A DNA stretch of 64,000 nt from Candidatus Poribacteria bacterium (GTDB lineage Bacteria > Poribacteria > WGA-4E > PCPOR2b), in NCBI GenBank assembly GCA_022822005.1, contig JAJECO010000003.1:45098-109097 (forward strand), read 5' to 3'. This document shows, piece after piece, positions 11,895 through 52,848 of this stretch. The translations under genes and the position numbers were made by a program. Under the pieces are notes generated by a model. That model made no database searches. It had not been told where the DNA came from and saw only the letters and a program-made list of their open reading frames with translations. Numbering within the stretch: the first letter of the stretch is position 1; every line of letters starts with the position of its first letter.

Positions 11895-12016
11895 TAGGGT
11901 CATTTAGTTTTTCTGTAGGAGGGATTTCCAAATCCCGACACTTCGCCCCAAGAGCAACTTCCCGACTCTGACCTTTCAAACAAAATGCGTAATAAGCCTA
12001 AAACTGAATAGCCCTA
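11895..12016. mobile_element. MITE-like element, family S4, with GTAG-REP cargo
   Basis: TAGGGTCATTTAGTTTT...AAAACTGAATAGCCCTA inverted ends; second copy at 42559-42681. Confidence 0.75.
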
Positions 12017-12034
12017 AAATTCAGAAAAGTAGGC

Positions 12035-12064
12035 TTGACAAAAAGTAGCATATCATTTTAGAAT
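12035..12064 (+). promoter_or_regulatory. Sigma70-type promoter of the STAS gene
   Basis: TTGACA-N18-TAGAAT. Confidence 0.6.
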
Positions 12065-12144
12065 GAAAGCAGATAGAAAACAGCGGATCTATATTTTTCA
12101 AAATAACCGGCTTTTTGCCACATAACATTTCAGGAGAAGAAGTG

Positions 12145-12489
12145 ATGGATGTCAATGTTGAACACAAGGATGGCGTTATCGTTCTGAAACTTGGTGGGAG
12201 AATTGTGGGTATCGCAGGGGGCGAGCTCAGACAGATAATCGAAGAGCAGCTGGCAAATGCCCCTGACTCCCCTAAATTCCTGTTTGATTTTGCCGATGTA
12301 TCCCGGATGGATAGTTCCGGAATCGGAACGCTGATCGGCTTGCACGTATCCGTTGCACGCAAGAACGGGCGGATCGGTGTGATCAACGTTAGTAACACTA
12401 TCAACAATCTCCTTGTGATAGGGAGGCTAATTACTATCTTTGAACATTTTGACAGCGAAGATGAAGCTATCTCTGCGCTACAGGGATAG
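12145..12489 (+). CDS. STAS-domain anti-sigma factor antagonist
   Basis: DFADVSRMDSSGIGTLI phospho-Ser motif; about 115 aa; AGGAG upstream. Confidence 0.9.
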   Translation: MDVNVEHKDGVIVLKLGGRIVGIAGGELRQIIEEQLANAPDSPKFLFDFADVSRMDSSGIGTLIGLHVSVARKNGRIGVINVSNTINNLLVIGRLITIFEHFDSEDEAISALQG

Positions 12490-12554
12490 CAAGTCCTGCC
12501 ATGGCAAAACGGACCGATTTTGCGTATGGCGCAAACTATCCCGATTCCTACTCA

Positions 12555-13838
12555 TCAGGGACTGTCCGCACGAAACGTCCTTGGCAGCAGTTCATGGACA
12601 GTTCGAACAATCATATCCTCCACAGCAGGTGCGAAGCGCGTGGGGCGATCGTAGTAAATCATCGCCCCTTCGCCTTCGTAGCCACCCTCCCTCAGAATGC
12701 GTCTCGAAGGAATATAGCACGGTACGTCGTTGCAGTACGCATTGACCCACAGACGCGAAGCGTCGCACTCACGCTTAAGACGAACTGAATAATCAACCAC
12801 CACCTCGCCGGGCAGAAAAACGACTGCAAGTTCATCCCCAAAAGTCCAGGTCTGGATCGGGTAGGGGAGCGCAGTCTGAAGGGCTTCGCCGCGATCCAAT
12901 CGATTGAGTTGTATCTGCGCGTGGTAGCCGATTGCCCCGCCGCCCTCCACGCGTTCCTCCCACTCTTGACGGGTAGGCAATGCGTCAAAAGGTAAGTCAA
13001 CGCGCTTGACCTGACCTGTGAGTTTCCCTTCCAAGACGGTAAGGTCACTACCAAGGAGTCGGTTCACTTCGGCGGCAATCGTATGACCATGCTGTCGTGC
13101 AAAGTTTAGCCCGGTCCGCGGTGCGGGATTCGCATCTCCTGCACATCCGATCGCCACCAGTGCAATTGCATCGGGATAATCTGCCTCGATATAGGCACTC
13201 GCATAGCCTGCCCAATCTCCGCAGACAGCGTTAAAATCGCCGCCGAGCGTGGTGCAGTGACAGGCGTAACTGGTGAGAACTGCCCGCAGCCCACCGTCAC
13301 CTCCGACGGCACGAAGCATCGGCAAGGCATGGTCAACGGGACCCCCCTTCGTCCGACGATTAGCGGCGAATCCAACCCTTCCTTCTCCCCACGAGAGAGA
13401 ACCGGGGCAGAGATCAGCGAGTGCTGCCTTTGCTACCTGCTTCAGTTTCTCCGTCAACTCGCGGGTATAGCGATCAATATTCTCCTGATGCGCTTCAGGA
13501 ACTGGCACTCCAAACAGTGTCCGCAGCACGCCTGAGAGGTATGGCGCACTGTGGGTATGCGTGGAACAGATTACAAATTGTTCACGAGCAACACCTGCGT
13601 CTTCCTTTACCTTGGCAGCAACCTCCTCGGTGATGTCATCCGGCACACCACAGTTATCCACCGTTATTAACACAGCAGGACTTTCGGTTCCGCTGCGGAT
13701 CGCTAACGCCTTCGCCCAGATCCGCTGTTCAACGCTATCCGCCTCATCTCGTCGCCCGCCGTAGCCACTGAGTCGAACCGGGAAATCGGGTGTGATATCA
13801 ATCTTTGCGGTACCAACTTGGTAGTTTGTCTCACTCAC
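12555..13838 (-). CDS. Neutral/alkaline ceramidase-like amidohydrolase
   Basis: GTAKIDITP, THTHSAP, YACHCT, GCAGDANP, LPGEVV and YIPS motifs. Confidence 0.8.
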   Translation of the reverse strand: MSETNYQVGTAKIDITPDFPVRLSGYGGRRDEADSVEQRIWAKALAIRSGTESPAVLITVDNCGVPDDITEEVAAKVKEDAGVAREQFVICSTHTHSAPYLSGVLRTLFGVPVPEAHQENIDRYTRELTEKLKQVAKAALADLCPGSLSWGEGRVGFAANRRTKGGPVDHALPMLRAVGGDGGLRAVLTSYACHCTTLGGDFNAVCGDWAGYASAYIEADYPDAIALVAIGCAGDANPAPRTGLNFARQHGHTIAAEVNRLLGSDLTVLEGKLTGQVKRVDLPFDALPTRQEWEERVEGGGAIGYHAQIQLNRLDRGEALQTALPYPIQTWTFGDELAVVFLPGEVVVDYSVRLKRECDASRLWVNAYCNDVPCYIPSRRILREGGYEGEGAMIYYDRPTRFAPAVEDMIVRTVHELLPRTFRADSP

Positions 13839-13860
13839 AGTTCTACCCCTTTATGAAGAG

Positions 13861-14892
13861 TTACGCATCCAGTGTCGGCATATCCACAGCACCCGCCCTA
13901 CGCTCATGGATATTCAACTCCATCGAATCCGGGTAGCGCATCGGAGGGGCGGAGACTTCGCTCAACCTCGCCAACGCATCAGCAGGAAGACTCCAACCTG
14001 AACAACCGATGTTATCCCGGAGTTGTTCCACCTTTGTTGATCCGACGATGACTGAGGTTATGCCCTCCTGTTCCAGAATCCATCGCAAAGCTACCTGTGC
14101 CATGCTCCTGTCCAGTCCTTGTGCGACATCTTGGAGTGTTTCCAAGATTTTCTGTATCCGTGGGTCAAGGTATCGGTCCATTGAAGACTCTGCCCTTCGA
14201 GCAAAACGCGAATCTTCCGGAGGCGGCTCGCCCGCTCTATACTTTCCGGTTAGGTATCCTGACGCCAACGGTCCCCAAACATAGACACCAACCCCTTTAT
14301 CACGACAAACGGGTAAGATTTCTTCCTCAATGTCGCGCGTCAGTAGATTGTACTGGGGTTGCAGTGCCTCATAGCGTGCTAAATTCTTTACCTCGCTAAT
14401 CCACAGGGCATCACACAACCGCCAAGCGTACTCGTTGCTGCAACCGATGTAGCGGACCTTGCCCTGATGTACAAGATCATCGAGGGCGCGTAGGCGTTCC
14501 TCAGTCGGCGTTTCCCTATCGACATGATGGATGAGGAAGAGGTCAATATGGTCAATCTGTAGCCGTCTCAGACTGTCCTCCACCGATCTCATGATATGTA
14601 CCCGTGAAGTGCCGGAATCGTTGATGTCCGTTCCCATTGGGTTGAACACTTTGGTCGCGATAATAAGTTTATCGCGCTTCCCTTTCATGATGCGCCCCAA
14701 AATCGTCTCTGACCGACCTTCAGCGTATGAATTTGCCACATCAAAAAAGTTAATGCCGGCGTCCAACGCACAGTTGAAGATTGCATCCGATTCGGCTTCG
14801 TCGTTGCCCCAATCGGTTGCCCCAAAGGTCATCGTCCCCAAACAGACCTCTGAAACTTTGAGTCCAGTTCTTCCTAAACGTCTGTATTGCAT
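13861..14892 (-). CDS. Aldo/keto reductase
   Basis: LGRTGLKVSEVCLGTMTFG, DVANSY, IATK, GKVRYIGCSN, QPQYNLL. Confidence 0.93.
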   Translation of the reverse strand: MQYRRLGRTGLKVSEVCLGTMTFGATDWGNDEAESDAIFNCALDAGINFFDVANSYAEGRSETILGRIMKGKRDKLIIATKVFNPMGTDINDSGTSRVHIMRSVEDSLRRLQIDHIDLFLIHHVDRETPTEERLRALDDLVHQGKVRYIGCSNEYAWRLCDALWISEVKNLARYEALQPQYNLLTRDIEEEILPVCRDKGVGVYVWGPLASGYLTGKYRAGEPPPEDSRFARRAESSMDRYLDPRIQKILETLQDVAQGLDRSMAQVALRWILEQEGITSVIVGSTKVEQLRDNIGCSGWSLPADALARLSEVSAPPMRYPDSMELNIHERRAGAVDMPTLDA

Positions 14893-14983
14893 GTTTTTCT
14901 CCTTCTTGTAATGCGGTCTGATTTTACTTGCCATTTTATCATATCTCCTCCAGTCGATACAACGGCAAACATCAATTAAAACT

Positions 14984-15011
14984 TTGCATTCCCCATATTA
15001 TTCTGTATAAT
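14984..15011 (+). promoter_or_regulatory. Putative sigma70 promoter upstream of the MFS gene
   Basis: TTGCAT-N16-TATAAT. Confidence 0.5.
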
Positions 15012-15184
15012 GAAAACAGCGATTGTAAGGTAGCTCTTGATTTCCGTTAAGCCCTGGTTCAGCATAGTTGAGACCGGAGACATGCCTATGTGCACCCCAC
15101 CCAAAAATCGAAAGATTTCTGCCGACCTCCATAAGAAATTTAAAGGTACAGCAGATATCTTCCAGAGATAGGTCCCATAAACTA

Positions 15185-16360
15185 ATGTGGAATCGCCAAT
15201 TCATCTCATTGTGCCTTATCCTACTTGCAGCGGGACTTGTCACCGCCCCTATCGAACTCCTGTTCCCGGTCTATGTGGAGGAGGCATTGGGCAAAACCGT
15301 ATGGTTCGCCGCGCTATTACGCGCAGTTCCCATCGCTCTCGGCGGTATATTCGCTTTGGTCGGTGGTGCGTTGAGCGATCGATTGGGTCGGAAGTCCACG
15401 TTAATTTTAGGGATGACAGGGGCACTGGTTGTGGGGGTCGTGTTCATAAGTGAGCAACCGTTGCTAATCTGGGGAGTGCTCTGCTATCAGGGGATTGCCT
15501 CCGGTTTCCGGATAGCGGGTGGCCAATCGTATCTTATCAGCGCCGTTGACGCGAACCGGCTTGGCTTGGCAGCCGCTGTCTACTTCATGACGTACACATT
15601 CGGAGGATCAATGGGCAGCGCAATTGGAGGTGAGTTAATCGATCGCTTCAATTACGGAGTTGTTGGCGGCGGAACGATTTTTGTCATGATCTTGCTCATT
15701 TTGGCAGCGCTTATCCTTCTACCTCGCCTGCCGCGTGGGGGCGATGAACGGAAATCTTTCACTCAAATGTTAGCAGGGTATGGGGAAATGCTCCGACGCC
15801 GAGAGGTCCGGCTATTGCTCGGAATGCGTTTTCTGCCGACTTACTCTTGGGGGACGGTCAGTCTCCTACTGCCGGTTCTGATTGCACGCGCCTCCGGTGT
15901 TAGGCTGGCAGGATACTACGGTGCATCAAGAGATCTGTTTGCCGCCTGCTGCCAGCTGATATCGGGTCGGGTTTGTGATACTGTCGGCGCTAAGGCCACC
16001 GCCCTTGTTGCGACCTGTCTTGTCGCACTGAGTGTGGTCCTAATTACGCTAAATACAGGTTCGACAACCCTGATATTTGTATTGGGGGTCTTCGGTGCAG
16101 GGGCAGCATGGTCGGTTTCAATCACAATGCCTCGCCTCATTGATGAGTTTTTTGCCACGGAGGAGAAGGGACGGGGTGTTGGGATAACGCATCTTGCGTG
16201 GAGTTCAGGTTTCCTCTCAGGACACATGGTGGGAGGCAGACTCGAATCGGTGAGTATCTCCTTGCCGTTTGCTGTGGCTGCGGGTATGGTTGTTATTTCG
16301 GCGATACTCGCGTTTCGGCTTTGGCGGAGCGGGAAAGTGAAAAAAGCGCCTAGCTATTGA
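15185..16360 (+). CDS. MFS transporter
   Basis: About 12 hydrophobic helices; MFS motif A (GALSDRLGRK). Confidence 0.9.
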   Translation: MWNRQFISLCLILLAAGLVTAPIELLFPVYVEEALGKTVWFAALLRAVPIALGGIFALVGGALSDRLGRKSTLILGMTGALVVGVVFISEQPLLIWGVLCYQGIASGFRIAGGQSYLISAVDANRLGLAAAVYFMTYTFGGSMGSAIGGELIDRFNYGVVGGGTIFVMILLILAALILLPRLPRGGDERKSFTQMLAGYGEMLRRREVRLLLGMRFLPTYSWGTVSLLLPVLIARASGVRLAGYYGASRDLFAACCQLISGRVCDTVGAKATALVATCLVALSVVLITLNTGSTTLIFVLGVFGAGAAWSVSITMPRLIDEFFATEEKGRGVGITHLAWSSGFLSGHMVGGRLESVSISLPFAVAAGMVVISAILAFRLWRSGKVKKAPSY

Positions 16361-16439
16361 TATAATTTTTAATGGACAATAAAACGACTTAGGATGTAAT
16401 TTCCACTCAACCTTTTTTGCATCATATCTATCATAAAAA

Positions 16440-16616
16440 ATGACAAGCCGTGAAATTATTGCACGACTTAAAAGAGAAGGATGGCTGCTCCTTCATATTC
16501 GTGGAAGTCATCATCAATACAAACATCCCAACAAGTCAGGCAAAGTTATCGTTCCCCACCCAAGGAAAAATTTCCCGAAAGGTACACTGAGGAACATCTA
16601 TCGGCAGGCAGGTTGA
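16440..16616 (+). CDS. hicA: HicA-family toxin (58 aa, absent from the ORF track)
   Basis: Manual translation MTSREIIARLKREGWLLLHIRGSHHQYKHPNKSGKVIVPHPRKNFPKGTLRNIYRQAG; GSH motif; directly upstream of hicB. Confidence 0.9.
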   Translation: MTSREIIARLKREGWLLLHIRGSHHQYKHPNKSGKVIVPHPRKNFPKGTLRNIYRQAG

Positions 16617-16637
16617 GATTGGCCCTAGAGGTGTTTT

Positions 16638-17048
16638 ATGCGCTACCCAGTTGTTATCCACAAAGATCCAGATAGCGATTACGGTGTAACCGTTCCAGAT
16701 CTTCCGGGTTGTTTTACCGCCGGAGACACGATTGATGACACAATCGCTCAAGCCGCGGAAGCCATCGAATGCCACATTGAAGGGTTGGTACTCGACGGCA
16801 ATTCAATTCCAACACCCCGTAACATTGAGTTCCATCAGAAAAAGCCAGATTATGCCGATGGGGTTTGGGCGTTAGTATCGGTAACTCTTGATAAACTCCC
16901 AGGTGAATCACGTCGTGTTAATATCACTATGCATGAAATTCTGTTAGCATTGATAGACCAACATGCTAAGCAGCATGGCGAGACCCGATCGAAGTTTATC
17001 GCACAAGCAACAATGGAGTTTATCGCAAGTCATAGCACCGTTGAATAA
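16638..17048 (+). CDS. hicB: HicB-family antitoxin with C-terminal ribbon-helix-helix
   Basis: YGVTVPDLPGCFTAGDT and RVNITM motifs. Confidence 0.92.
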   Translation: MRYPVVIHKDPDSDYGVTVPDLPGCFTAGDTIDDTIAQAAEAIECHIEGLVLDGNSIPTPRNIEFHQKKPDYADGVWALVSVTLDKLPGESRRVNITMHEILLALIDQHAKQHGETRSKFIAQATMEFIASHSTVE

Positions 17049-17079
17049 ACGTGCCGTGCATGGGTTGAAAGGACATTCT

Positions 17080-18189
17080 ATGCGTCAGCGGGCTTCGACC
17101 GCGCTCTTTCACGGGGCGGGTCAACCATTTGAACTCTCTAAACAGGAAATTATAGCGCCAAATATAGATGAGGTACTGGTTCAGGTGTCGTTGGCGACGA
17201 TCTGCGGTTCAGACCTGCACACCTTTACAGGACGCCGGACCGCACCCGTTCCGTGCGTATTGGGCCACGAAGCGGTTGGGCGCGTTGCTGCACCGACGCA
17301 GGTTCGCGATGCGTATGGCAATCCTTTGCACGAAGGCGACCGTGTGACGTGGAGCATCATGGCGGCATGTGGTACGTGCGAATATTGTAACAAACGAAAT
17401 CTGCCACAGAAGTGTGAGAAGCTGTTCAAGTATGGACATGCACGAAGTGAGGATCCATATTTCCTCAACGGCGGTTTCGGAGAATGGATTTGCCTTCGAT
17501 CGGGAACAGCGATCTACCGCATCCCTGATGCGGTAAGCGACATCGAAGCAGCACCGCTCAACTGTGCCCTCGCTACGGTTTTGGGTGGACTGGCAACGCT
17601 TGACCTGACGGACCGAGCCAGCGCGGTTGTTCAAGGCGCAGGCATGTTAGGCATTTACGCTGCGTGCTGTCTACGTGAACGAGGGTTTGAAATTGTCGCA
17701 TGCGTAGACCGTGTTACCGAGCGGCTTCGCATCGTGGAAGCCTTCGGTGCAACCCACACATTTAATCTCTCCGAAACCTCCACCGTGGAGATCGAGGAAG
17801 CCTTATACGGTGTAACGGGTGGGCGCGGTGTCGATCTCGCCGTTGAAGTGAGCGGCTCAGAAGCTGCGTTAGTCAACTCGCTTGATTGGTTGGGAATCGG
17901 TGGGAGCTGCTTGACGCTCGGCTACGTCTTCCCACACGCCGATGTCACGGTAGACGCACATAAGGTTGTGACAAAATGCTTGACGGTGCGAGGGAATCAT
18001 AACTATCATCCGTCCGCGTTAGGAGACGCACTTCGGTTTGTTGAGGAGACGCGGGAACGGTATCCATTTGAGGATTTAGTCGGTGCGGTCTATCCCCTGA
18101 AGGAAATCAATCCTGCATTTGATCGGGCGATGCAGGGAGATTTGATTCGAGTAGGCATTAATCCAAGTTTAGAAGGGAAGCCGTTGTGA
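17080..18189 (+). CDS. Zinc-dependent alcohol dehydrogenase, resembling the phosphonate-catabolism-associated family (TIGR03366-like)
   Basis: ICGSDLH, GHEAVG, CGTCEYC..C, LFKYGH, PLNCALAT, GNHNY; overlaps the phnA start. Confidence 0.85.
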   Translation: MRQRASTALFHGAGQPFELSKQEIIAPNIDEVLVQVSLATICGSDLHTFTGRRTAPVPCVLGHEAVGRVAAPTQVRDAYGNPLHEGDRVTWSIMAACGTCEYCNKRNLPQKCEKLFKYGHARSEDPYFLNGGFGEWICLRSGTAIYRIPDAVSDIEAAPLNCALATVLGGLATLDLTDRASAVVQGAGMLGIYAACCLRERGFEIVACVDRVTERLRIVEAFGATHTFNLSETSTVEIEEALYGVTGGRGVDLAVEVSGSEAALVNSLDWLGIGGSCLTLGYVFPHADVTVDAHKVVTKCLTVRGNHNYHPSALGDALRFVEETRERYPFEDLVGAVYPLKEINPAFDRAMQGDLIRVGINPSLEGKPL

Positions 18190-19298: not shown

Positions 19299-19384
19299 CT
19301 GGTATTTCAGAGGCTGCGCCGAATGCAAGCCGTAATCATACAAAATCGACCTTAGCGTTCATTAGAAAACGGAGAGATAGTAAT

Positions 19385-22188: not shown

Positions 22189-22220
22189 GATCCTGCTCCT
22201 CTTCGGAGTTACGTAGTACA

Positions 22221-22402
22221 GTTTGTAGTAGCGCAATTCATTGCGCGTTCGGACGGGCGATAAATCGCCCTACTACAAACCTACCGATTTACTGTAGTTG
22301 CCCGTTTCTTAATCCCGCCTGTCCCGATTTATCGGGGATTTATCGGGGACTCATCGGGCGTTGGAAATAGTGTCCAGCAGCGATAAATCACCGCACTACA
22401 AA
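22221..22402. repeat. Two GTAG-type REP doublets (REPIN-like), one with a nested insertion
   Basis: GTTTGTAGTAG...CTACTACAAAC; TGTAGTTGCCCG[insert]..ATCGGGC...CACTACA. Confidence 0.8.
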
Positions 22403-22437
22403 GTTTTGAGCGTTCAAGTGCGTAAGTCCTTACCTTT

Positions 22438-23904: not shown

Positions 23905-23943
23905 GTTTCCTCCGATACAAAGATTGCTTGAGGGGTGTGCATG

Positions 23944-24555
23944 ATAATTGCCTGAATCAGGATTCTCAGGTTTCTTAATCCCGATTTATCGGGGATAGAA
24001 ACCGGAACGTGAAACGGAACTATTTTAAGACGGGACAGGGTGCATTTAGCCCCAGCGGGGCGACATGTTTATAGAATACAGGAACCACCACGCACCAAAG
24101 CCCCAGCGGGGCGACATGTGTAACCTAAGAAGGATGAATGAACCCATGAAATCCCCGATAAATCGGAATTTTCAACTTGAACAATGTGGAAACAACTTTC
24201 TTACTAGGGCGTGTTGACATTTTGCTTTTGCTATTGCGAGAAACGGTCAAATGACTGGAAACGCTGCCAGAAACCGAGTTTTTTCTTCAAAACTCGGTTT
24301 CTTTTCTGGGGATTCTACCTCGGTGAACCGATTTATGTTCCTCTATTATCTGGTTATGATGAAATGTCAACAGAACCTAGCTAGCACCAAAGGTTAATAG
24401 GTTTGGTCTTTCGCTCCAGCGGAGCAATATGTCTATAGCAATGCGGATACGCCCAGCCCTTGCGCTCCAGAGGAGCGCAATGTGTATAGCAAAAGCGGTT
24501 ATGGCTTGGATATGTCTATCCAAGCCAAGCAGGTCTTACTAGCAACTTAGGTTAT
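23944..24555. repeat. Composite cluster of miniature repeats: CCCGAT..ATCGGG units, a GCCCCAGCGGGGC doublet, an S2 element, a GCTCCAG doublet, a GGCTTGGATA hairpin and an S5 end
   Basis: Each module recurs elsewhere in the window (27007-27672, 28150-28227, 29884-29917, 52627-52833). Confidence 0.8.
24204..24380. mobile_element. CTAG-flanked MITE-like element, family S2 (IS5-like ends)
   Basis: CTAG-GGCGTGTTGACATTT...AAATGTCAACAGAAC-CTAG; partial copy starting at 27170. Confidence 0.7.
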
Positions 24556-24605
24556 GATAGATGCGGACTGGGGTGATGTCAAGTTTTTATCGGTTTGAGT
24601 GGCTG

Positions 24606-26849: not shown

Positions 26850-27006
26850 GTGGCGCTATTCTCCTTTGATATTTTTATAGTTGCGCTTATAGTAAATACG
26901 ATAGAGTTCATCAACGAATTGCACAATCTGGGCGTGATATTCTCCAATATCCCTTGCCACAATGGCACCCTATCCCTCTTAGTGTTGGGTGGACTGAAAA
27001 GGTTCA

Positions 27007-27173
27007 CTAGTACACTTCAGATAAATGCTAATGACCCTGCTCGTAGTGGATTGACAAATCCACTACACAGATACCTAACACATTGCGCTATAGTCCGGGT
27101 ATTTATGGCTTGGATATGCCTATCCAAGCCGAGCGATGGATGACTTGTCACAATTTATTTGACGAAATACTGG
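27007..27173. mobile_element. CTAG-flanked MITE-like element, family S1
   Basis: Reverse-complement homolog of 41152-41293; carries GTAGTGGATT..AATCCACTAC and GGCTTGGATA..TATCCAAGCC hairpins. Confidence 0.75.
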
Positions 27174-27224
27174 GTTCCGTTGACATTTCAGCGGAGCCAG
27201 ATAAAATCTGACGCGCATCGTTAC

Positions 27225-27375
27225 TATGGTAAATTTTAGCATTAATTAGATGCTGTGAGCGGGTCCCGATAGATCGGGATTCGCGGAGTTACAGCACACG
27301 GTGCCCCGATGAATCGGGATTCAAAGCAATGTGCCTACTACTTTTAATGGCTATTTATTTTTAGAGGTCACCATA
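27225..27375. mobile_element. TA-flanked MITE-like element, family S3, with nested REP cargo
   Basis: TATGGTAAATTTTAGCATTAA...CTATTTATTTTTAGAGGTCACCATA; same ends as 37580-37681. Confidence 0.7.
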
Positions 27376-27407
27376 GTCTGTTTCTATTTCTATGACGGAA
27401 ATATCTT

Positions 27408-27672
27408 AATCTGAGTTGACATGTTGGAGCAAAATAAGGGAGCATCCGAACCATGTTTATTTGCAGGGTGGGAACAGATAGGATAGAAGTGGTCCAAAGC
27501 AGGATTATAAATCGCATGAGATGGATTTCATCCGCTGCTGTTAGCCCCAGCGGGGCGACATGTTTATAGAATATCGGAGCCACCATACACAAAAGCCCCA
27601 GTTTTGAATCCCGCCTGTCCCGATTCATCGGGGATTCAAAGCAACTGGGGCTTTAAGCGGCAACTCAGGTAA
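27408..27672. repeat. S5-related shell holding a GCCCCAG REP and a long nested hairpin (27592-27654)
   Basis: AATCTGAGTTGAC...GGCAACTCAGGT ends; AAAGCCCCAGTT-TTGAATCCC...GGGATTCAA-AACTGGGGCTTT. Confidence 0.55.
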
Positions 27673-27690
27673 CCGCATATATTACTGGAA

Positions 27691-28039: not shown

Positions 28040-28227
28040 AGGGAACCAGGAGGGTGTAGGGAACCAGGGGGGTGTAGGGAACAATGATCGCTGTTCCCCA
28101 CGATTTCTGTTGCCCGATTTCTTGACATGAGCCATAGAGTTTAGGTGCTGTACACATTGCGCCCCTCTGGAGCGCAGGCGTTAGAGGTATGGGCATTCTA
28201 TAGACATATCGCTCCTCTGGAGGCGAA
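28040..28227. repeat. Tandem GTAGGGAAC units plus an inverted GCTCCAG doublet
   Basis: AGGGAACCAGG.GGGTGT repeated; 28150-28227 is a reverse-complement match to 52686-52766. Confidence 0.7.
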
Positions 28228-28263
28228 GAAAGATAATCTTCTCTGAACAGTTGGCAAATGGCG

Positions 28264-29883: not shown

Positions 29884-29917
29884 AGAAACCGAGTTTTGAA
29901 GAAAAAACTCGGTTTCT
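29884..29917. repeat. AGAAACCGAG..CTCGGTTTCT hairpin repeat
   Basis: Exact reverse complement of 24269-24302; degenerate copy at 56120-56150. Confidence 0.75.
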
Positions 29918-32283: not shown

Positions 32284-32457
32284 ACGATTTGACAGGGGAG
32301 ATATTAAGAGAAAGGGCGTTTGTCGTCAGACCCCCGCGGCATCGCCGGGAAAATGTCTATGCAACGCCCGAACGACGAAATTGGTTCATTGGTGTATTGG
32401 TTCACTGGTAGATTATGGCAGATTTTAGAGTTATTTAGACACACCCAATGTACGGCT

Positions 32458-32548
32458 AACCCCCTAAATCCCCCAACCCCTAACCCCCCTAGCCCTCCTT
32501 CCGATTTTATCGGAATCCCGAGTATCGGGACTTGGCAGGGGGACTTAT
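32458..32548. repeat. CCCCTAAATCCCC..GGGGACTT hairpin repeat with nested insertions
   Basis: Uninterrupted copy at 38326-38358. Confidence 0.6.
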
Positions 32549-32625
32549 GAGCCAGCTGCGTAAATCCTACTAATGAACTCAATATGCTCACCAACTCGTA
32601 CTAAAGGTTAAAAACATGAGTACGA

Positions 32626-35853: not shown

Positions 35854-35929
35854 TGGTGCGCCTGGGAGGATTCGAACCCCCGACACGAGGCTTAGGAAGC
35901 CCCTGCTCTATCCCCTGAGCTACAGGCGC
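35854..35929 (-). tRNA. tRNA-Arg(CCT), CCA encoded
   Basis: GCGCCTG acceptor stem, TTCCTAA anticodon loop, GGTTCGAATCC, 3' ACCA. Confidence 0.95.
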
Positions 35930-36605: not shown

Positions 36606-36671
36606 TCGGGCAAGATGCCCGACCTACGGGTGTGGTACGCCTTGATACGCATGTCGCCCCGCTGGAGCTTT
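36606..36671. repeat. GTAG-type REP plus a GCYCCAGCGGGGC unit
   Basis: TCGGGCAAGATGCCCGACCTAC and CATGTCGCCCCGCTGGAGC. Confidence 0.65.
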
Positions 36672-37579: not shown

Positions 37580-37681
37580 TATAGTGGATCTTAGAATTAA
37601 TGAGACACGCCAAACCGGTGCGGTTAGGAAACCGAACCTACCAAGGGCGAAAGTGTCTATTTATTTTTAGAATTCACCATA
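37580..37681. mobile_element. TA-flanked MITE-like element, family S3, with a single REP cargo
   Basis: About 29-bp imperfect TIR TATAGTGGATCTTAGAATTAATGAGACAC / GTGTCTATTTATTTTTAGAATTCACCATA. Confidence 0.75.
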
Positions 37682-41151: not shown

Positions 41152-41293
41152 CTAGTGCTCTGTCAAGTAAATTATGACAAGTCACTCCCTGCTCGGCTTG
41201 GATAGCCATATCCAAGCCCGACTTGCGGCGGTGTTGTGGTTTTGTCAATCCACAACGAGCAGGACCATTAGCATTTATCTGACAGTGTCCTAG
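41152..41293. mobile_element. CTAG-flanked MITE-like element, family S1
   Basis: CTAG-TGCTCTGTCAAGTAAAT...ATTTATCTGACAGTGTC-CTAG. Confidence 0.8.
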
Positions 41294-42216: not shown

Positions 42217-42244
42217 TTGACAAATCAACGAACGAGAGTATAAT
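42217..42244 (+). promoter_or_regulatory. Consensus sigma70 promoter whose -10 box is the insertion site of an S5 element
   Basis: TTGACA-N16-TATAAT. Confidence 0.7.
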
Positions 42245-42245
42245 A

Positions 42246-42428
42246 ACCTGAGTTGCTAGTTGCTAAGCCGGCTCGGCTTGGATAGGCATATCCAAGTCTC
42301 GGACTCTCGGAACGGAGCCATCTTTGCGCGTGTGCAGTGGATTTGTCAATCCACTGCGAGCAGTGAGGAACTCGATTTCGTTTTCATGCTTCCGCTTTGC
42401 GACATTTCACATCAATAGCAACTTGCGT
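42246..42428. mobile_element. MITE-like element, family S5, with 7-bp target duplication TATAATA
   Basis: ACCTGAGTTGCTA...TAGCAACTTGCGT flanked by TATAATA at 42239-42245 and 42429-42435. Confidence 0.8.
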
Positions 42429-42558
42429 TATAATAGCCAATTGAGAATCCACGGTAACGTCCTACAGGCTTGTAATTGCGAAGTTTTCTTTGTAGGCGTT
42501 CCACGAGATTATTATGGAACAGATAGGGGCAGTTGTCAAGGATTTTCTGAGGCTCAAA

Positions 42559-42681
42559 TAGGGTCATTTAGTTTTACTGTAGGAGGGATCTCCGAATCCC
42601 GACATCCCACTGTAGGCGTGATCCCCCGGTTGCACCTGTTCAAACAAAATGGTAAAAAAAGCCGAAAACTGAATAGTCCCA
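42559..42681. mobile_element. MITE-like element, family S4
   Basis: Homologous to 11895-12016. Confidence 0.75.
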
Positions 42682-42702
42682 GAGGCTCAAAAGGAGGCGG
42701 AT

Positions 42703-43485: not shown

Positions 43486-43513
43486 TGCTGTTGGTGGCAG
43501 CAATATGCCCTTC

Positions 43514-44329
43514 CTATCTTCCGAACCGTCGTTCTCGATGGCTATAGTCACGGATTGCCCGAAGGAAGTCAATCTTTCTGAAGCCGGGCCAATAGGTGTC
43601 GCAGAAGTAGTATTCTGAATAGGCGCTCTGCCAGAGCATGAAGCCGCTGAGCCGAATCTCGCCGCTGGTTCGGATAATCAGGTCTGGGTCTGGCAGATTG
43701 GAGGTGTAGAGATGCTCGGTAATCGCATCCGCACTCAGTTCTGCCGCTATCTGGTCCGGTGCTTTACCTTCCGCCGACTCCGATTTTAGGTAACGCCGAA
43801 ACGCCTCGACGATCTCCTCACGCCCACCGTACGCTACAGCGACATTGAGAATAAATTTATCGTAGTTCTTTGTCGCTTCCTCCACATCGCGAATAGCTTC
43901 TTGGAGGCTCGGCGGCAGTAATTCGAGCTTGCCCATGGGCCGCACCTGAATCTGGTTGGTATGGAGCCCTTCGATGGTGAGGAGCGATCGCATTTTCGTC
44001 TCAATGACATTGAAGATCTCCTCCACCTCCTCTTCTTTGCGATTGACAAAGTTATCGAGGGAGCAGATCCAGATTGAGACAATTTTTACCCCCAATTCAT
44101 CGCACCAATGAAGAACTTCTTCCAGCTTGTCCCCGCCTTCAGAGTGTCCGTACTGCCGTTTAGCGGCATCAAAAAAGCCTTCCGTTTTCGCGTACCTCCG
44201 GTTCCCATCCAAGATAATTCCGATATGATAAGGGGTATGCCACTGACTCGCCTCGCGCTCAAGCCGTTTCTGATACAGGAGGTAGAACAGTTGTTTAATC
44301 TTCTTTTTGATGAACTGTAATGGCTGCAT
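43514..44329 (-). CDS. cis-Prenyltransferase (UppS family)
   Basis: IILDGNRRYA, AVAYGGREEI, PDPDLIIRTSGEIRLSGFMLWQ, RERRFGR. Confidence 0.93.
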   Translation of the reverse strand: MQPLQFIKKKIKQLFYLLYQKRLEREASQWHTPYHIGIILDGNRRYAKTEGFFDAAKRQYGHSEGGDKLEEVLHWCDELGVKIVSIWICSLDNFVNRKEEEVEEIFNVIETKMRSLLTIEGLHTNQIQVRPMGKLELLPPSLQEAIRDVEEATKNYDKFILNVAVAYGGREEIVEAFRRYLKSESAEGKAPDQIAAELSADAITEHLYTSNLPDPDLIIRTSGEIRLSGFMLWQSAYSEYYFCDTYWPGFRKIDFLRAIRDYSHRERRFGR

Positions 44330-44345
44330 AATGGATAGATGTAAC

Positions 44346-45293: not shown

Positions 45294-45338
45294 GTCAAGG
45301 AAGCCTTTATTGTAATGGAAACAATTACGCTTTGCAAT

Positions 45339-47720: not shown

Positions 47721-47786
47721 TTACATTCCTCTGAATCGCGATATTTTGGGGTGTGCCAATCGCATTAAGATAGCGTTATATGGGCA

Positions 47787-47816
47787 ATAATAACATCTCG
47801 GCTCTTTTCTTGTCAA
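47787..47816 (-). promoter_or_regulatory. Putative sigma70 promoter of the metalloprotease operon
   Basis: TTGACA-N18-TATTAT with a TG extension. Confidence 0.5.
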
Positions 47817-48212
47817 TAACTTTGGGGAATGGGGTTAGGGGATTGAACTTGGGTTTGTACTTTTCGCCATTTGTTCCTTATGATATACTGGGAGGTGTTG
47901 ATTTATTGTTCTCCCGGCAGAAAGTGCATTAACACGAGTTGATAGGTTTTACAGATGCATTGCACATTTAAGGTTAAAAGCGACAACTGGCTTGCACGGT
48001 GTCGGGCAACGATCTTGGTTCATTCGACATTGACCTACCGAAGCATTTATCCACAATCGCTCAAAAAATGAACACTACTGTTCGCTATCAGCACACCGAT
48101 TTGAAGCATTTCTGCGCTGCAACAGGTTATACAGGCAGCGTGATTCGGCATGAAAATTGCCCTCCGTTACAGCAATTGAAATTACTCTTCGCAAACGATA
48201 TGGAGGGAAACG

Positions 48213-50561
48213 ATGCAAACCCGACGTTTAATCAAGGTTGCTGTTGCCGTGATCGTTGTGGGAATGGTTGCCGGACTAAAACCGGTATGGGGAGTGAACA
48301 ACTGGCTCCAGCTCGATGACGGGCTGGTTATGGGACAGGTTTACGCGCTTGCAGCGCACGAATCTCGACTATACGCCGGCAGCGAGAACGGTGTATTTGT
48401 TTCTGAAGACAGAGGAGAAAGTTGGTTGCCAACTTCGTTCAATAATTCAGTTAGTACACTGACGGTCGATGGAGCCACCGTTTACGCAGGAACCTGGTCC
48501 CAAGGCGTGTTCCGATCCGATGATACCGGGGTGACCTGGAAACCGATTCGGGACGGATTACGCCTTCACGAACATGCGGGAGAACGCTATTATGGCAATG
48601 TTCGTCACATTCTTGCCACTGACAACAATATTATCAATGTGATGTACCATAATGGCACCTATACATCCACCGACCGTGGAGAGACATGGCACGACATTTC
48701 AACGGAGTGGATGGGGGGCAACAGCATCCACTTGATGACGGAGTTTGACGGCTATCTTTGGAGTGCAGTATCAAACGGTTCTATGTTTCGTTCACCTGAC
48801 AACGGCAAGACATGGGAAAAGCTCCACCGTTTTGCTCATGGTCATGTATACGCCTGGGCGGCACTCAACGGACGACTGTATGTTGGCGGTTACAGGGGGG
48901 TTGGCGTATGGAATGAAACTACGCGGACTTGGGAATATCCCATGACTGGACTTCCAATTGGTAACCTTCACGACCCAGACGCGCTGCCGTACGTCTTCAC
49001 GCTTGCCGTTCACGGTGGTCGGCTGTTCGCTGGGTTGCACAACACACACGGCGTTTATGTCTTTGATTTACAATCAGGAACTTGGTCCTCCGTTGGTTTG
49101 GAAGGACGGTCCGTTCTTTCTCTCCTCTCGCACGGATCGGCGCTCTATGCAGTTACGGAGGAGGATGGCATCTATTACTTAGTCCAAGTCAGGACAGTTT
49201 CCCCTCAAGAGGGCAGCGTTGAGGGTGGCGAACCGATCACGATTTTTGGCAGAGATTTTCCGTATAGGACAACTGTTACGATTGGCGGGAAACCAGTGAC
49301 AGACCTTCGGGTGACCAATACACTGATAACAGGGCTCACACCGCCGGGAGTCCTCGGCGAAGCAGATATTGAGGTTCATTTTCCAGATAGCGGCACTTTC
49401 CCCCTTGAAAGGTGGAAATTTTTTTACACAAACGTCCCGTCAATAACGTTGAAAATGGCTCCAACTCATGGTCCTCAGATGGGCGGTGGAACTGGTATTA
49501 TAACTGGCAGCGCTTTCGCCCCTGATGCGACAGTAAAAGTCGGGAATAATCCGGCGTCGGGTGTTGTCGTCACGCCAACGCTGATTCATTTCACAATTCC
49601 GTCCGGCACGATCGGAACGGCAGATGTTACCGTAACTAACCCAGATGGAAGGAAGTGGATTTTGGAGAATGGGTACACTTACGATTCATTTTCTCCCCCT
49701 GTCATTCGTGAGGTTTACCCGAACAAGGGACCTATCGACGGCGGCACAGAAGTAGTCATCAGAGGGAATTACTTTCTCGAAGGGGTCACAGTTATAATCG
49801 GTGGGATTCAAATAGAGCATTTGGATAGCCTCTCGCCGATCGAAATTCGCTTAAAGACGCCGCCATCACCCCCCGGCCGCACAGAAATTCGTGTGGTCAA
49901 TCCCGATGGTCAACAAGTTGTGCAAGAACACGGATTTACCTACAATGCGCCTCTCGATATTACCAGTGTTACCCCCAATGTGGGACCCATGGAAGGCGGA
50001 ACGCTGGTGACTATCACTGGAACAGGATTTCACCCCATCGCCCGGAGTACTCAGGTTACAATTGATGGGATACCTGCATCAACCATTATCGACATGTCAT
50101 TAACAAGAGTGATAATCAAGACACCCGCGGCAAAGACCCCCGGTACGAAGGATGTTGCCTTAAGGAACCCCAACGGAGAGGAAGTTACGCTTATAGGCGG
50201 GTTTACCTATAACACTTCATTGGCAGTCGAGTCGAAAGGGAAGTTGTTGACCTCCTTCGGTTACGTGAAACAGACCCGTTTACTGCAAAATTATCCCAAC
50301 CCGTTCAACCCAGAAACTTGGATACCGTACCAACTGGCAACGGAAGCGGATGTTACCATCGTTATTTACGATAGCGGAGGACAACGGGTACGGACGCTTA
50401 AGTTAGGGTCTCAACCACCGGGACTATACCTTACTCAAGAGAAAGCAGCGTATTGGGAGGGACGGGATGATACCGGGGAATGGGTGTCCAGTGGTACATA
50501 CTTCTACTACCTGCAAGCGGGGAATTACTCGGCAACAAAGAAAATGATTATACTAAAGTAG
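48213..50561 (+). CDS. Secreted protein: BNR/Asp-box propeller, four IPT/TIG domains, FlgD-Ig/T9SS-CTD-like domain
   Basis: S.D.G.TW repeats; P..GP..GGT.V.I.G..F and V.NPDG repeats; LLQNYPNPFNPETWIPYQL. Confidence 0.85.
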   Translation: MQTRRLIKVAVAVIVVGMVAGLKPVWGVNNWLQLDDGLVMGQVYALAAHESRLYAGSENGVFVSEDRGESWLPTSFNNSVSTLTVDGATVYAGTWSQGVFRSDDTGVTWKPIRDGLRLHEHAGERYYGNVRHILATDNNIINVMYHNGTYTSTDRGETWHDISTEWMGGNSIHLMTEFDGYLWSAVSNGSMFRSPDNGKTWEKLHRFAHGHVYAWAALNGRLYVGGYRGVGVWNETTRTWEYPMTGLPIGNLHDPDALPYVFTLAVHGGRLFAGLHNTHGVYVFDLQSGTWSSVGLEGRSVLSLLSHGSALYAVTEEDGIYYLVQVRTVSPQEGSVEGGEPITIFGRDFPYRTTVTIGGKPVTDLRVTNTLITGLTPPGVLGEADIEVHFPDSGTFPLERWKFFYTNVPSITLKMAPTHGPQMGGGTGIITGSAFAPDATVKVGNNPASGVVVTPTLIHFTIPSGTIGTADVTVTNPDGRKWILENGYTYDSFSPPVIREVYPNKGPIDGGTEVVIRGNYFLEGVTVIIGGIQIEHLDSLSPIEIRLKTPPSPPGRTEIRVVNPDGQQVVQEHGFTYNAPLDITSVTPNVGPMEGGTLVTITGTGFHPIARSTQVTIDGIPASTIIDMSLTRVIIKTPAAKTPGTKDVALRNPNGEEVTLIGGFTYNTSLAVESKGKLLTSFGYVKQTRLLQNYPNPFNPETWIPYQLATEADVTIVIYDSGGQRVRTLKLGSQPPGLYLTQEKAAYWEGRDDTGEWVSSGTYFYYLQAGNYSATKKMIILK

Positions 50562-50661
50562 GGCGGTCGGCGGAGATTTTCTTTAACCTATTCATACGTG
50601 TGATACACATGTCGCCCCACCCCGCTCCCGATTTCATCAAGACAGGCGGGATTCAAAGCAA

Positions 50662-51399
50662 TTAGGGAGTGAATGTCTCAAGAATAGGAGGCGGTTGGCT
50701 ATTTTGCAAAAGAGCCAGCGCGGCTGAGATGATTTTATGCTGTAGGACAGGGTTGTTCGGCTCGCCAAGCGGGTAGCCGAAACGGTACGGCACAGCGAGT
50801 GCACGGGGCGGTTTGACCTGCTCGGTAATTTCCCGAACCAGCGTGATCGAAACGGTTGAGATGCCGACTTCCTCGATCGCACGTTGGATCAGCCCAACGG
50901 ACTGATTGCATAGCGGTCAAACGGGTGTCAGAAATACGACATCGACGCCATCTGCCTTGAGGTGCGCCCCAACCTCTGGGGCGGTGCGTTTGATTAAACG
51001 TCCCGGAGCGGACTGCGATCCCATAAAGCTGAAATGCCGGTCGTTGAGCTCCCCGATTTTGTCCGCCCCTTCTAACTCACGAAAGCGATCAAGCGGAAAC
51101 GCCAGATTCCGATCCGCAAAGCTGCCGGTCTGATCGTATACAGTGCTGCTGTGTGCAGTCGTCAACGCTTGCACATCAACGGTGTTAGGGATTTCACGAT
51201 AGGAGTAATCGCCGCTCATGAAGTGATCATCAAACGGCTCTTGAGACGGTGTATGTAAACCGGCGGTGGTGACCAAGGCAACTCGGCATTCCGTTAGGGG
51301 TCGCTGCAGCGGGGTATGCGGCGTTGTATCGTAACGTCGATAGCGATAGAGTTTCATGAAGATGCGAAGTTTGAAGTCAAGTTCATCAAAGGAGGGCAC
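50662..51399 (-). CDS. PrdB/GrdB-like reductase selenoprotein (UGA read as Sec at 50917-50919)
   Basis: ALVTTAGLH, D.N..FPLDR and HFSFMG motifs; frame continues past the TGA as TPV-U-PLCNQSVGLIQRAIEEVGISTVSI...VKPPRAL.VPYRFGYPLG to TAA at 50662; GTG start after AGAAGGA. Confidence 0.85.
50888..50906 (-). promoter_or_regulatory. Candidate bacterial SECIS hairpin
   Basis: ATCAGTCC-GTT-GGGCTGAT stem-loop starting 11 nt after the UGA, G leading the apical loop. Confidence 0.6.
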
Positions 51400-51467
51400 G
51401 CTGGGGTCCTTCTCTGCATTGTCTAAGTCATACGCAGATAAATATTTCAACTATATTCTTCATGTCA

Positions 51468-51495
51468 ATTATAGCATAAATTGAGATGATGTCAA
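51468..51495 (-). promoter_or_regulatory. Sigma70 promoter of the selenoprotein gene
   Basis: TTGACA-N16-TATAAT with TGn extension. Confidence 0.65.
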
Positions 51496-51549
51496 ATGAG
51501 CTCTTTCTTATCTGAACACGAACTATTTCCGAAACCGAGGTATTCGATA

Positions 51550-52608
51550 ATGGCAGATTCAAAACGAATTGAGCATCATGAACTGATTCAATTCTTCAAA
51601 GAGGCACTGATGGCTGTTGGTACGCCGGCACATGTAGCAGAGGTAGAGGCGGAGATTGGCGCGGAGGTTGATCTTTGCGGCGTACATTCGCACGGCGTGA
51701 GATTGCTGCCGGTGATGGTCGAAAACATCCGTACTGGACTGACGAACCCAGATCCGAAAGTGGAGGTTCTTTCGGAGCAACCGGCTTCGGTGCTCGCGGA
51801 GACAGACCGAGGCATCGGGCGTTATGTTTCCGCTGTGGGGATGGATATGGCAATCGAACGCGCCAAGAGTTACGGGATCGGTGCAGCCACCATCCGGGGC
51901 GTGGCACACTGGGGGCGCGGATATAGCTACGCAGCACGGGCGGCGCGAGCCGGTATGATCGGTCTAGCGTACACAAACGCTATCATTAACTTCCCGGCGT
52001 GGGGAACCTCCGCGCCCTCTCTGGGCAACAACCCGATGGCTATCGGCATTCCCGTGGGTGCAGGGGAAGAACCGGTCGTGTTAGACATCGCCATGACGCA
52101 GATTGCGATCGGCCGGGTCCGTGAAGCCGCCGAAACGGGACAGCGTGTTCCTATTGGATGGGGGTTAGATGCAGCGGGCAAACCCACAACGGATCCGGAA
52201 GCAATCGTCGAGTCTCAACGCTTTCTGCCGATGGGTGAATACAAGGGATCCGGTTTGGCGTTCATGATCGAGCTGCTGACGGCGGGCTTGGCGGGCGGAA
52301 TGCTCTGCTATGAGTTAGGAACCGAGGGGCGCCCAACGGACACCTCCGGAGGTTCATCAAAACTTTTCATCGCTATACGACCTCACGGGGATTGGTTAAA
52401 CGAAAGGACCGCGTCGCTCAAATCCTACCTAAAGTCCGCACCGCCGGCAGAAGAACAGGGCGAAGCACAGTGGCCCGGCGAGGGCAGTTATCGCCACCGC
52501 ACCGAGTATCTCGCAGAAGGAATTCCAATCCCCCTCAAGTTAGCAGAGGAGATGGAGGAACTCGCACAAGAGTTATCTGTGGCGTTAAATTGGATGGATT
52601 GTCGCTGA
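51550..52608 (+). CDS. Ldh_2-family oxidoreductase (ComC/DpkA/YiaK/AllD-like)
   Basis: GVHSHG, HWGR, LGNNPMAIG, LDIAM, PTTDP, YKGSGL. Confidence 0.9.
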   Translation: MADSKRIEHHELIQFFKEALMAVGTPAHVAEVEAEIGAEVDLCGVHSHGVRLLPVMVENIRTGLTNPDPKVEVLSEQPASVLAETDRGIGRYVSAVGMDMAIERAKSYGIGAATIRGVAHWGRGYSYAARAARAGMIGLAYTNAIINFPAWGTSAPSLGNNPMAIGIPVGAGEEPVVLDIAMTQIAIGRVREAAETGQRVPIGWGLDAAGKPTTDPEAIVESQRFLPMGEYKGSGLAFMIELLTAGLAGGMLCYELGTEGRPTDTSGGSSKLFIAIRPHGDWLNERTASLKSYLKSAPPAEEQGEAQWPGEGSYRHRTEYLAEGIPIPLKLAEEMEELAQELSVALNWMDCR

Positions 52609-52626
52609 TTCGGATCTGTTCTAATT

Positions 52627-52848
52627 TGACGCAAGTTGCTAGTGCTGAAAATCCATCAGTTTTCTGTTAAAACTGAAACTCTACCTTTCGCTCCAGAGGA
52701 GCGATATGTCTATAGAACCACCATAGAGTTAATCCCTGCGCTCCAGCGGAGCGCAATGTGTATAGCAAAAGCGGTTATGGCTTGGATATGTCTATCCAAG
52801 CCGAGTAGGTTTTACAACTAGCAACTTAGGTTAATATAATTCACCATA
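52627..52848. mobile_element. MITE-like element, family S5, followed by an S3-like end
   Basis: ACGCAAGTTGCTA...TAGCAACTTAGGT; interior nearly identical to 24410-24554; then AATTCACCATA. Confidence 0.75.

Follow-up and report, generated by a model that had tools for sequence, protein, structure and literature searches.

What are the short repeats that crowd the spacers between genes in a Candidatus Poribacteria genome, and do the hairpins inside them pass freely from one set of transposon ends to another? The question is raised by a stretch of 64,000 nucleotides, analysed here in full and referred to as the window (G000:C96:45098-109097), from a 6.0-Mb draft genome (G000; 6,000,819 bases, 97 contigs, 50% G+C). 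The intergenic spacers of the window are crowded with small transposons that code for nothing and descend from insertion sequences (IS). An initial annotation had described them as five shells, each bounded by its own terminal inverted repeats (TIR), that carry interchangeable repetitive extragenic palindromic (REP) hairpins. Target duplications and empty orthologous sites show that REP doublets move within IS-derived miniature inverted-repeat transposable elements, or MITEs, as one unit, as the travelling half of that proposal held; the mix-and-match half gives way to a different picture, in which the modular look is probably genealogy and each shell lineage keeps its cargo once acquired. Comparisons were made across 20 genomes of the genus (G000 included), which are kin, so that counts among them are not independent.

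The repeat finder recovered every one of the five proposed TIR pairs, and their ends were read in the sequence. The copies in the window are as follows, with coordinates refined by hand from the repeat-finder output and from reading of the sequence; the hairpins are described further below.

1..21, minus strand: last 21 bases of a third S1 copy with the flanking TAG, cut by the window start (the full copy is C96_44945).
11895..12016, plus strand: S4a, a MITE with the TIR TAGGGTCATTTAGTTTT and hairpin H6; exact 9-bp duplication AAATTCAGA at 11886-11894 and 12017-12025.
24207..24377, plus strand: S2, an IS630-type MITE in a CTAG target with TA duplication; hairpin H5 inside, at 24268-24303.
27010..27170, plus strand: S1a, an IS630-type MITE with the doublet D12; TA at 27008-27009, right TA degenerate (TG); left arm, reversed H2 at 27037-27069, 35-nt spacer, H1 at 27103-27134, right arm.
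27227..27373, plus strand: S3a, a MITE flanked by TA, with TIRs of the S3 type; an interior of type C and two TCCCGAT..ATCGGGA hairpins.
37582..37679, plus strand: S3b, an IS630-type MITE between two TA dinucleotides (37580-37581 and 37680-37681); an interior of type A, with the hairpin GGTGCGGTT..AACCG.
41155..41290, minus strand: S1b, an S1 MITE of 136 nt in the opposite orientation; reversed H1 at 41188-41218, H2 at 41231-41262; TA duplication at 41153-41154 and 41291-41292, inside C-TA-R.
42246..42428, plus strand: S5a, an IS982-type MITE with D12; 7-bp duplication TATAATA at 42239-42245 and 42429-42435; reversed H1 at ~42268-42296, 33-nt insert at 42297-42329, H2 at 42331-42363.
42560..42681, plus strand: S4b, an S4 MITE; 10-bp duplication GAGGCTCAAA at 42550-42559 and 42682-42691.
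52629..52831, plus strand: S5b, an S5 subfamily; H3b at 52685-52715, H3c at 52735-52765, H1 at 52777-52808, with no H2-H1 doublet.

These TIR pairs recur genome-wide. The nine intervals claimed in the initial annotation returned between 43 and 222 BLAST matches each in the genome, with 19, 26, 9, 2, 24, 58, 44, 39 and 6 matches at a query coverage of 80% or more, and per-position coverage was ~110-140 over the hairpins against ~12-85 over the shell ends. By a 13-mer count of the genome, high-copy short repeats account for 261,197 of the 6,000,819 bases (4.4%), in 3,386 islands.

Comparison with congeners revealed several of the shells as insertions. Gene order is kept in G009, G010 and G017, and repeat content differs in nearly every spacer. 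The whole 183 nt of S5a are absent in G009, G011, G010 and G001, where the empty site holds one TATAATA against two at the filled site. The S4b site is empty in G009, G011, G010 and G017, and that of S3b in G017, with the TA duplicated in the filled site; G017 also presents an empty S1b site, reading ..GGTAATC-TA-AGAATATC. S5b is missing at the orthologous site in G009 and G017, and an S3-type element is found there in G010. Neither S5a nor S5b is present in G009, so S5 moved in the lineage of G000 after its separation from G009. The search for empty sites in relatives that the initial annotation had proposed hence succeeded for S5a, S4b, S3b and S1b. Its own caveat, that the mosaics might be assembly artefacts, could be set aside: the same composites are also present in genus members assembled as a single contig, and S1b occurs at the orthologous G009 site inside a 97%-identical block.

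The target duplications were scored genome-wide. An exact TA duplication was found in 21 of 24 S1 copies, mostly in a CTA / TAG context, in 9 of 10 paired S2 copies, in a CTAG context, and in 44 of 50 paired S3 copies; CTAG is the classical target of IS630. With their TIRs, and with the empty sites of S1b and S3b, S1, S2 and S3 behave like MITEs derived from the IS630 family. They resemble in this the RUP (repeat unit of pneumococcus) of Streptococcus pneumoniae, an IS630-family MITE with TA duplication: S1-S3 are 100-180 nt long, have TIRs and duplicate TA, with S1 and S2 lying in CTAG. They differ from such MITEs in having several unrelated TIR sets, at least three interiors behind S3-like ends and, in some cases, REPs of a system built on a REP-associated tyrosine transposase (RAYT). 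Comparison of the two S3 copies in the window confirmed that they have no interior in common, because the interiors behind S3-like TIRs belong to at least three unrelated types. Another S3-type element, with a CCCCCTAAATCCCC.. interior and an inserted hairpin, lies at 32413-32600, in a spacer of 266 nt here and 39 nt in G009.

IS630-family transposases are present in 18 of the 20 genomes, with up to 34 matches in one of them, and none (DDE_3) was found in the G000 draft assembly, a further difference from IS630-family MITEs of the RUP kind. An IS630-family element of G018, inserted at a TA within an S3 copy and with a split reading frame, has ends matching S3 at 21 of 26 and 17 of 27 positions. 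No end match for S1 or S2 was detected among 10 IS630 loci of congeners. The proposed matching of TIRs to the ends of full ISs thus gave no partner for S1 or S2 among these loci and was borne out for S5.

S5 is a family of ~110-300 nt with no coding capacity. Its 22-nt end pattern, at up to 5 mismatches, gave 152 matches, which are not due to chance, since the reversed pattern gave 7. Target duplications of S5 are 7 bp long and exact in 18 of 36 copies (22 of 36 with at most one mismatch) and 8 bp long and exact in 5 of 36; the heptamers are of the type TAnnnTA, and D12-bearing S5 copies have their own 7-bp duplications. The G000:C54 copy, 923 nt long, of an IS of 922-923 nt has ends ACGCAAGTTGCTAG.., which agree with S5a's right end at all of 17 nt, and encodes an intact 296-aa transposase scoring 168.4 bits on NF033520 (IS982, cut-off 130). 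Its relatives are multi-copy in several congeners, with matches in 10 of the 20 genomes at E<=1e-40. Exact 7-bp duplications (TATGTTA, TATAATA) flank 2 of the 5 copies with both ends in five genomes, and the duplication of the G000 copy matches at 6 of 7 bases. This IS and S5 thus have in common AC-starting ends over 17 nt and a 7-bp duplication, and differ in that the ends alone are shared, the S5 interior consisting of the REP doublet and ~50 nt of unrelated sequence. By its ends and duplication length, S5 can be identified as a miniature of the C54 IS982-family IS.

S4 makes exact target duplications of 9 bp in 11 of 37 copies and of 10 bp in 5 of 37. A second IS982-family IS, at G000:C95 (197.8 bits on NF033520, TIR TAGGGTCTTATGCTAGTT), may tentatively be proposed as the element from which S4 derives.

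The cargo itself comprises five prominent hairpin families. H1 is GGCTTGGATA-TGNC-TATCCAAGCC, H2 is CAGTGGATT-TGTC-AATCCACTG, H3 is GC(C/T)CCAGNGG(A/G)GC with a ACATGTnTATAG tail, the H4 type is TCCCGAT..ATCGGGA and H5 is AAACCGAGTTTT..AAAACTCGGTTT. H1 and H2 have in common a GGAT-x-TGTC-x-ATCC core and the tail CGAGC(A/G)G, and are usually paired as an inverted doublet, D12, of the form CTCG-H2(reversed)-spacer-H1-CGAG; 153 H1 and 161 H2 module calls in the genome yielded 127 such doublets. As single-stranded DNA, D12 folds into two hairpins at -26.7 kcal/mol, against -12.1 +/- 2.6 for shuffled sequences (z -5.64; 0 of 200 shuffles as good). The hairpin GGCTTGGATA..TATCCAAGCC was found in both S1 and S5, as the initial annotation had it.

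The origin of this doublet was traced through the RAYT genes. A Pfam search of the genome identified three PF01797 (Y1_Tnp) open reading frames (ORFs) of 185-200 aa, with borderline scores of 22-25.5 bits, all of which pass the NF047646 REP_Tyr_transpos model (88.4, 125.3 and 200.3 bits; cut-off 80). RAYT-1, the 185-aa ORF at G000:C58:206145-206702, scores 88.4 bits on NF047646 versus 16.2 on IS200, and its translation contains the HLH (HUH) and YIHNNP motifs; a PDB sequence search with it returned nothing significant. H2 lies ~60 nt upstream of RAYT-1, H1 follows its stop codon directly, and arrays of further doublets flank the gene on either side. The same bracketing is seen in G009 and G004; in G014, H2 is present upstream, and H1 was not detected downstream at up to 2 mismatches. 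The proposed comparison of the REPs with RAYT-flanking repeats thereby found its match, and the position of H2 and H1 at this gene marks them as true RAYT-associated REPs. D12 looks like a gene-less miniature of the H2-RAYT-H1 unit, that is, a REP doublet forming hairpins (REPIN) with two unlike arms; by eye, the right part of its spacer resembles the 3' flank of RAYT-1. At E<=1e-20, RAYT-1 was found in 4 of the 20 genomes (G000, G009, G014 and G004), in one copy in G000 and in two pieces in G004. RAYT-2 and RAYT-3 are flanked by their own GTAG-tagged repeats. In RAYT-2 (G000:C54:113420-113977), two copies of its own REP (GGGGCAAGATGCCCCGCCTAC) lie in frame within the ORF, encoding a repeated ..GQDAPPTG.., and more copies flank the gene.

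Whether cargo is exchanged among shells was addressed by cutting 24 modules from the window by coordinates and mapping them on 1,509 padded islands. Modules were called on 730 islands, in 287 distinct arrangements, at a coverage of 60% or more, and some of the counts include diverged or mis-assigned ends. The strictly paired shells carried the following cargo:

S1: D12 in 23 of 25, 3 of the 23 also with H4.
S2: H5 in 8 of 8.
S3: no library hairpin in 94 of 107, H4 in 13.
S4: H6 in 57 of 64, 7 of the 57 also with H4.
S5: D12 in 12 of 12, 2 also with H4 and 1 with a whole nested S2.

In addition, motif tests on the 113 D12 doublets with full flanks distinguished the following ends:

Both ends of the S5 type: 34.
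Both ends of the S1 type: 23.
A single recognisable end: 32.
Ends of mixed type: 6.
No end motif: 18, several of which show degenerate S5 arms on reading.

Furthermore, the D12 variant follows the shell. The foot of the H2 stem is CA..TG in 29 of 34 S5-borne doublets, and in 17 of 23 S1-borne doublets it is TT..AA (10) or TA..TA (7), with CA..TG in 3; pairing is kept throughout. Doublets with no recognised ends have CA..TG in 11 of 18, as do the copies adjacent to RAYT-1. Single-linkage clustering of doublet flanks and of S3 interiors lumped everything together, and samples were read instead.

The alternative, that the RAYT-driven doublet and other small hairpins insert repeatedly and preferentially into MITE shells, for example into single-stranded DNA hairpins, and so remake the combinations, draws on real features of the data. 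D12 sits in two unrelated shells, S1 and S5, and, as a third kind of shell with the same REPIN, an S4-like shell with an H1-H2 doublet occurs as a G009-specific insertion (63192-63398 of the G009 80-kb region, opposite 47833-47844 of the window). H4-type hairpins are found in S1, S3, S4 and S5, with secondary insertions of this kind in 25 of 216 paired shells; 5 of 10 S2 copies have landed in the CTAG within an S5 end; and at least two module families occur together on 278 of the 730 islands. REP dimers have also been described as lying regularly within palindromes by Di Nocera, De Gregorio and Rocco (2013; PMC3733652). Active targeting of this sort is nevertheless unlikely, given that copies of one shell have the same junctions, D12 variants are shell-specific and cargo is nearly fixed per shell. 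For the same reasons, few acquisition events are needed. The interchangeable cargo of the initial annotation thus does not emerge from the tabulation, in which cargo is mostly fixed, largely the outcome that the annotation itself had named as refuting it.

The variation that is real consists of secondary insertions, S5 subfamilies, three S3 interior types and two S1/S5 chimeras. Seven S4 copies have an identical 44-nt H4-type insert at one junction, four of them with their own 9-10-bp duplications (one mismatched), and S3 within an S4 end recurs in at least six copies. In ~7 S5 copies, H3c-H3b replaces H2, as in S5b. Of the six doublets with mixed ends among the 113, four owed their call to a weak motif and were false, which leaves two true chimeras with S1 on the left and S5 on the right.

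In the simplest account of these data, a small number of captures took place, and the transposase of the outer element then amplified the composite. Two kinds of non-autonomous selfish DNA, DDE-type MITEs and RAYT-linked REP hairpins, would share the intergenic space and have become nested. On few occasions D12, or another of the small hairpins (H4 or H5, for instance), would have ended up inside a MITE. From that point, as the duplications and empty sites show, the composite was copied as one unit, with a fresh target duplication each time, by the DDE transposase that recognises the MITE ends. Further variety would come from MITEs landing in MITEs, as where an S5 end supplies the CTAG for S2, and from recombination between shells via the shared D12. 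We consider this account of nested insertion and hitch-hiking to be probable.

Several results weigh against it. The partner ISs are incomplete, S1 and S2 being without one and the G000 draft without an IS630 transposase, and the link between S4 and the C95 IS consists of only ~10 of the first 11 terminal bases. Module calls are partly loose, as the false calls among the flagged chimeras illustrate. No S1 or S5 copy merely lacking D12 was seen, so that the capture step itself is inferred. In terms of distribution, D12 is commonest in the four genomes with RAYT-1, with 127-163 first-look candidates, which are not copy numbers and come from related genomes, versus 18-88 in the other 16; RAYT activity may therefore weigh more than hitch-hiking for the copy number of D12. 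Four genomes that lack RAYT-1 and hold 6-20 copies of the IS982-family IS yielded few full S5::D12 composites (0-3 of the candidates scored), and G009, which has RAYT-1 and no such IS982 transposase at E<=1e-40, contains at least nine. This pattern may reflect the shared ancestry of G000 and G009, with their 97%-identical orthologous block, and it leaves room for a role of RAYT in copy number.

The RAYT-1 locus bears on the relation between RAYT and S5. At G000:C58:205780-207200, RAYT-1 and its REPs lie between two S5-type ends flanked by TAAAATA, and the unit is followed by two more S5::D12 units with the same heptamer between them, all in tandem; the G009 locus showed an S5 end only upstream of RAYT-1. 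One could envisage S5, at least, being moved by the tyrosine transposase itself, in the manner of a 'TIRtron', with RAYT recognising the terminal repeats. The TAAAATA on both sides of the RAYT-1 unit and the fact that, among five genomes compared, full S5::D12 is common only in those with RAYT-1 would fit such a mechanism, as would the RAYT-like genes flanked by TIR repeat families that are described in Di Nocera et al. (2013; PMC3733652). The S5 duplications, however, are 7 bp long and of the TAnnnTA type, like those of the IS982-family IS, with which the ends are also shared. Moreover, IS200/IS605-type HUH transposases are known to insert without target duplications, and the heptamer also separates the downstream tandem units, so that tandem duplication may explain its presence. 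A TIRtron-like origin of S5 appears very unlikely on these grounds.

The same locus allows an extension of the nested-insertion account. The D12-bearing S5 MITEs could be deletion derivatives of a hybrid element, with an HUH/tyrosine transposase inside and DDE-recognised ends outside, in which a RAYT that is supposed to be immobile and vertically inherited was, like its REPINs, moved and multiplied by an unrelated DDE transposase, and the shared REPIN could have served as portable homology for recombining IS630- and IS982-type shells into chimeras. We regard this extension as a doubtful, although conceivable, one.

The remaining families in the window include free-standing copies and fragments:

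24044..24122, plus strand: H3a direct doublet (GCCCCAGCGGGGC with a ACATGTnTATAG tail).
27539-27569, 28146-28233 (minus strand) and 36645-36671 (minus strand): other H3 copies.
27597..27646, plus strand: H4-type palindromic mini-element (TTGAATCCC..GGGATTCAA around TCCCGATTCATCGGGG).
22301-22340, 23958-23997 and 50602-50662: other H4-type copies.
29884..29917, no strand assigned: free-standing H5 (AGAAACCGAGTTTT..AAAACTCGGTTTCT).
56138-56169: another H5 copy.
24405..24559, plus strand: right part of an S5b-type element (H3b, H3c, H1 and S5 end), ending with the heptamer TATGATA.
27173..27204, plus strand: solo S2-type end adjoining S1a.

A uniform 44-nt 'nano-MITE' was considered for H4 and rejected, the perfect TTGAATCCC..GGGATTCAA frame being present in one copy only and the H4-type hairpins being heterogeneous. 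A ~22-33-nt unit (TCTCGGACTCTCGGAACGGAGCC) stands at the foot of H1 in some doublets (42297-42329 in the window, and other G000 copies) and in other copies itself holds an H4-type hairpin, which suggests several nesting layers of very small units. A MITE-like element of another family, of ~212 nt at 22203-22433 (ends ~GTAGTACAGTTTGTAGTAGCGC / GCACTACAAA), has an H4-type hairpin inside and is absent in G010 and G017. Relative to the window, G009 has ~13 kb of extra DNA at the spacer 26875-27689 and ~7.6 kb at 43486-43503. The genes of the window encode a sigma-54 activator, a sorting tail of the type IX secretion system (T9SS), sulfatases and WD40/NHL/TPR proteins.

Several elements coincide with promoter-like sequences. 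Two S5-type insertions coincide precisely with the -10 hexamers of strong promoter-like sites: S5a with that of TTGACA-16-TATAAT (42217-42245; counted by hand), and the S5b-type fragment, whose TATGATA is the -10 box, with that of TTGACA-17-TATCAT on the minus strand (24554-24582). The heptamer that S5 targets is similar to a -10 box. The solo S2 end bears an outward-facing promoter-like TTGACA-16-TAAAAT (27180-27207), matching at 11 of 12 positions.

Such promoter-like sequences on S2 ends and the landing of S5 in -10-like heptamers, together with the perfect H5 hairpins that have T-runs on both sides and lie between same-strand genes (29884-29917, 56138-56169), would fit hairpins that were not selfish passengers and had been selected by the host as regulatory modules (terminators, mRNA stabilisers or promoters). 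Congeners that keep the gene order nonetheless differ in almost all spacers as to which of these elements are present, a simple terminator scan did not flag them, and an Rfam search of the window matched no family to the repeats, its sole matches being three tRNA genes (9104-9257, 35857-35929). Host selection as their main explanation is hence highly improbable.

REPIN-RAYT systems, MITEs and REP dimers inside palindromes are already known, and the composites can be set against each. REPIN-RAYT systems are well described in Bertels and Rainey (2011; PMC3116915). As in such systems, RAYT-1 is a single gene in G000 flanked by its own hairpin repeats, more than 100 extragenic copies occur here, mostly as inverted doublets with a short spacer, and D12 first-look candidates are more numerous in the genomes that keep the RAYT. 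Unlike in these systems, the arms of D12 are the unlike hairpins H2 and H1, resembling the left and right ends of IS200/IS605; the consensus flanks of H1 and H2 contain no GTAG tetranucleotide, the conserved tail being CGAGC(A/G)G; approximately half or more of the doublets lie within DDE-type MITEs; and RAYT-1 is restricted to 4 of the 20 genomes. REPIN-RAYT systems are also reportedly treated by Nunvar and coworkers (2010).

The nearest precedent was located in Di Nocera, De Gregorio and Rocco (2013; PMC3733652), where MITEs are well described as background, with RUP listed among them, and the REP dimers that occur in A. variabilis, T. roseum and H. neapolitanus are reported within longer palindromes, a matter that the authors did not investigate further. 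For A. variabilis and H. neapolitanus, arms devoid of REPs were not found, and the arms were treated as possible targets. The statement in the initial annotation that no description of such a system is known was hence too strong. The two cases are alike in that REP doublets lie between inverted-repeat arms and that REP-less arms were not found, as for S1 and S5; they differ in that the arms here are shown to be the ends of MITEs by their target duplications, by empty sites and by an IS that matches, and in that one doublet occurs in two unrelated shells. A full-text literature search, with Poribacteria included, brought up no account of IS-derived MITEs that carry a REPIN, and the Delihas 2011 review contained no passage on the subject. 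What the present data add to that precedent is the identification of REP-carrying arms as IS-derived MITE ends and the occurrence of one REPIN in unrelated shells.

Bacterial interspersed mosaic elements (BIMEs) are composed of REPs in alternating orientation with fixed linker motifs, and are not known to have TIRs or target duplications. The composites described here have both, and so are not BIMEs under that definition. With the BIMEs of E. coli and with the small dispersed repeats (SDR) of Nostoc, the latter reportedly described by Elhai and coworkers in 2008, they have in common that short palindromes of a few kinds make up mosaic intergenic arrays, and that very small elements are found inside other repeats. 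An assignment to cyanobacterial small dispersed repeats was dropped, the gene content being non-cyanobacterial and GCGATCGC showing no enrichment.

REPINs are usually modelled as replicated by their own RAYT alone, and MITEs by a DDE transposase alone. In this genome, one REPIN is carried by, and copied with, MITEs of two unrelated IS families. Because the REPIN rides in MITEs, a second replicator could confound what is inferred from sequence about the counts, ages and 'vertical inheritance' of REPINs. The nested units make up ~4% of the genome and occupy most spacers of the genus, where they mislead repeat classifiers and motif hunters. Finally, the preference of S5 for TATAAT-like heptamers leads it to land in -10 boxes, where it may affect the expression of neighbouring genes.

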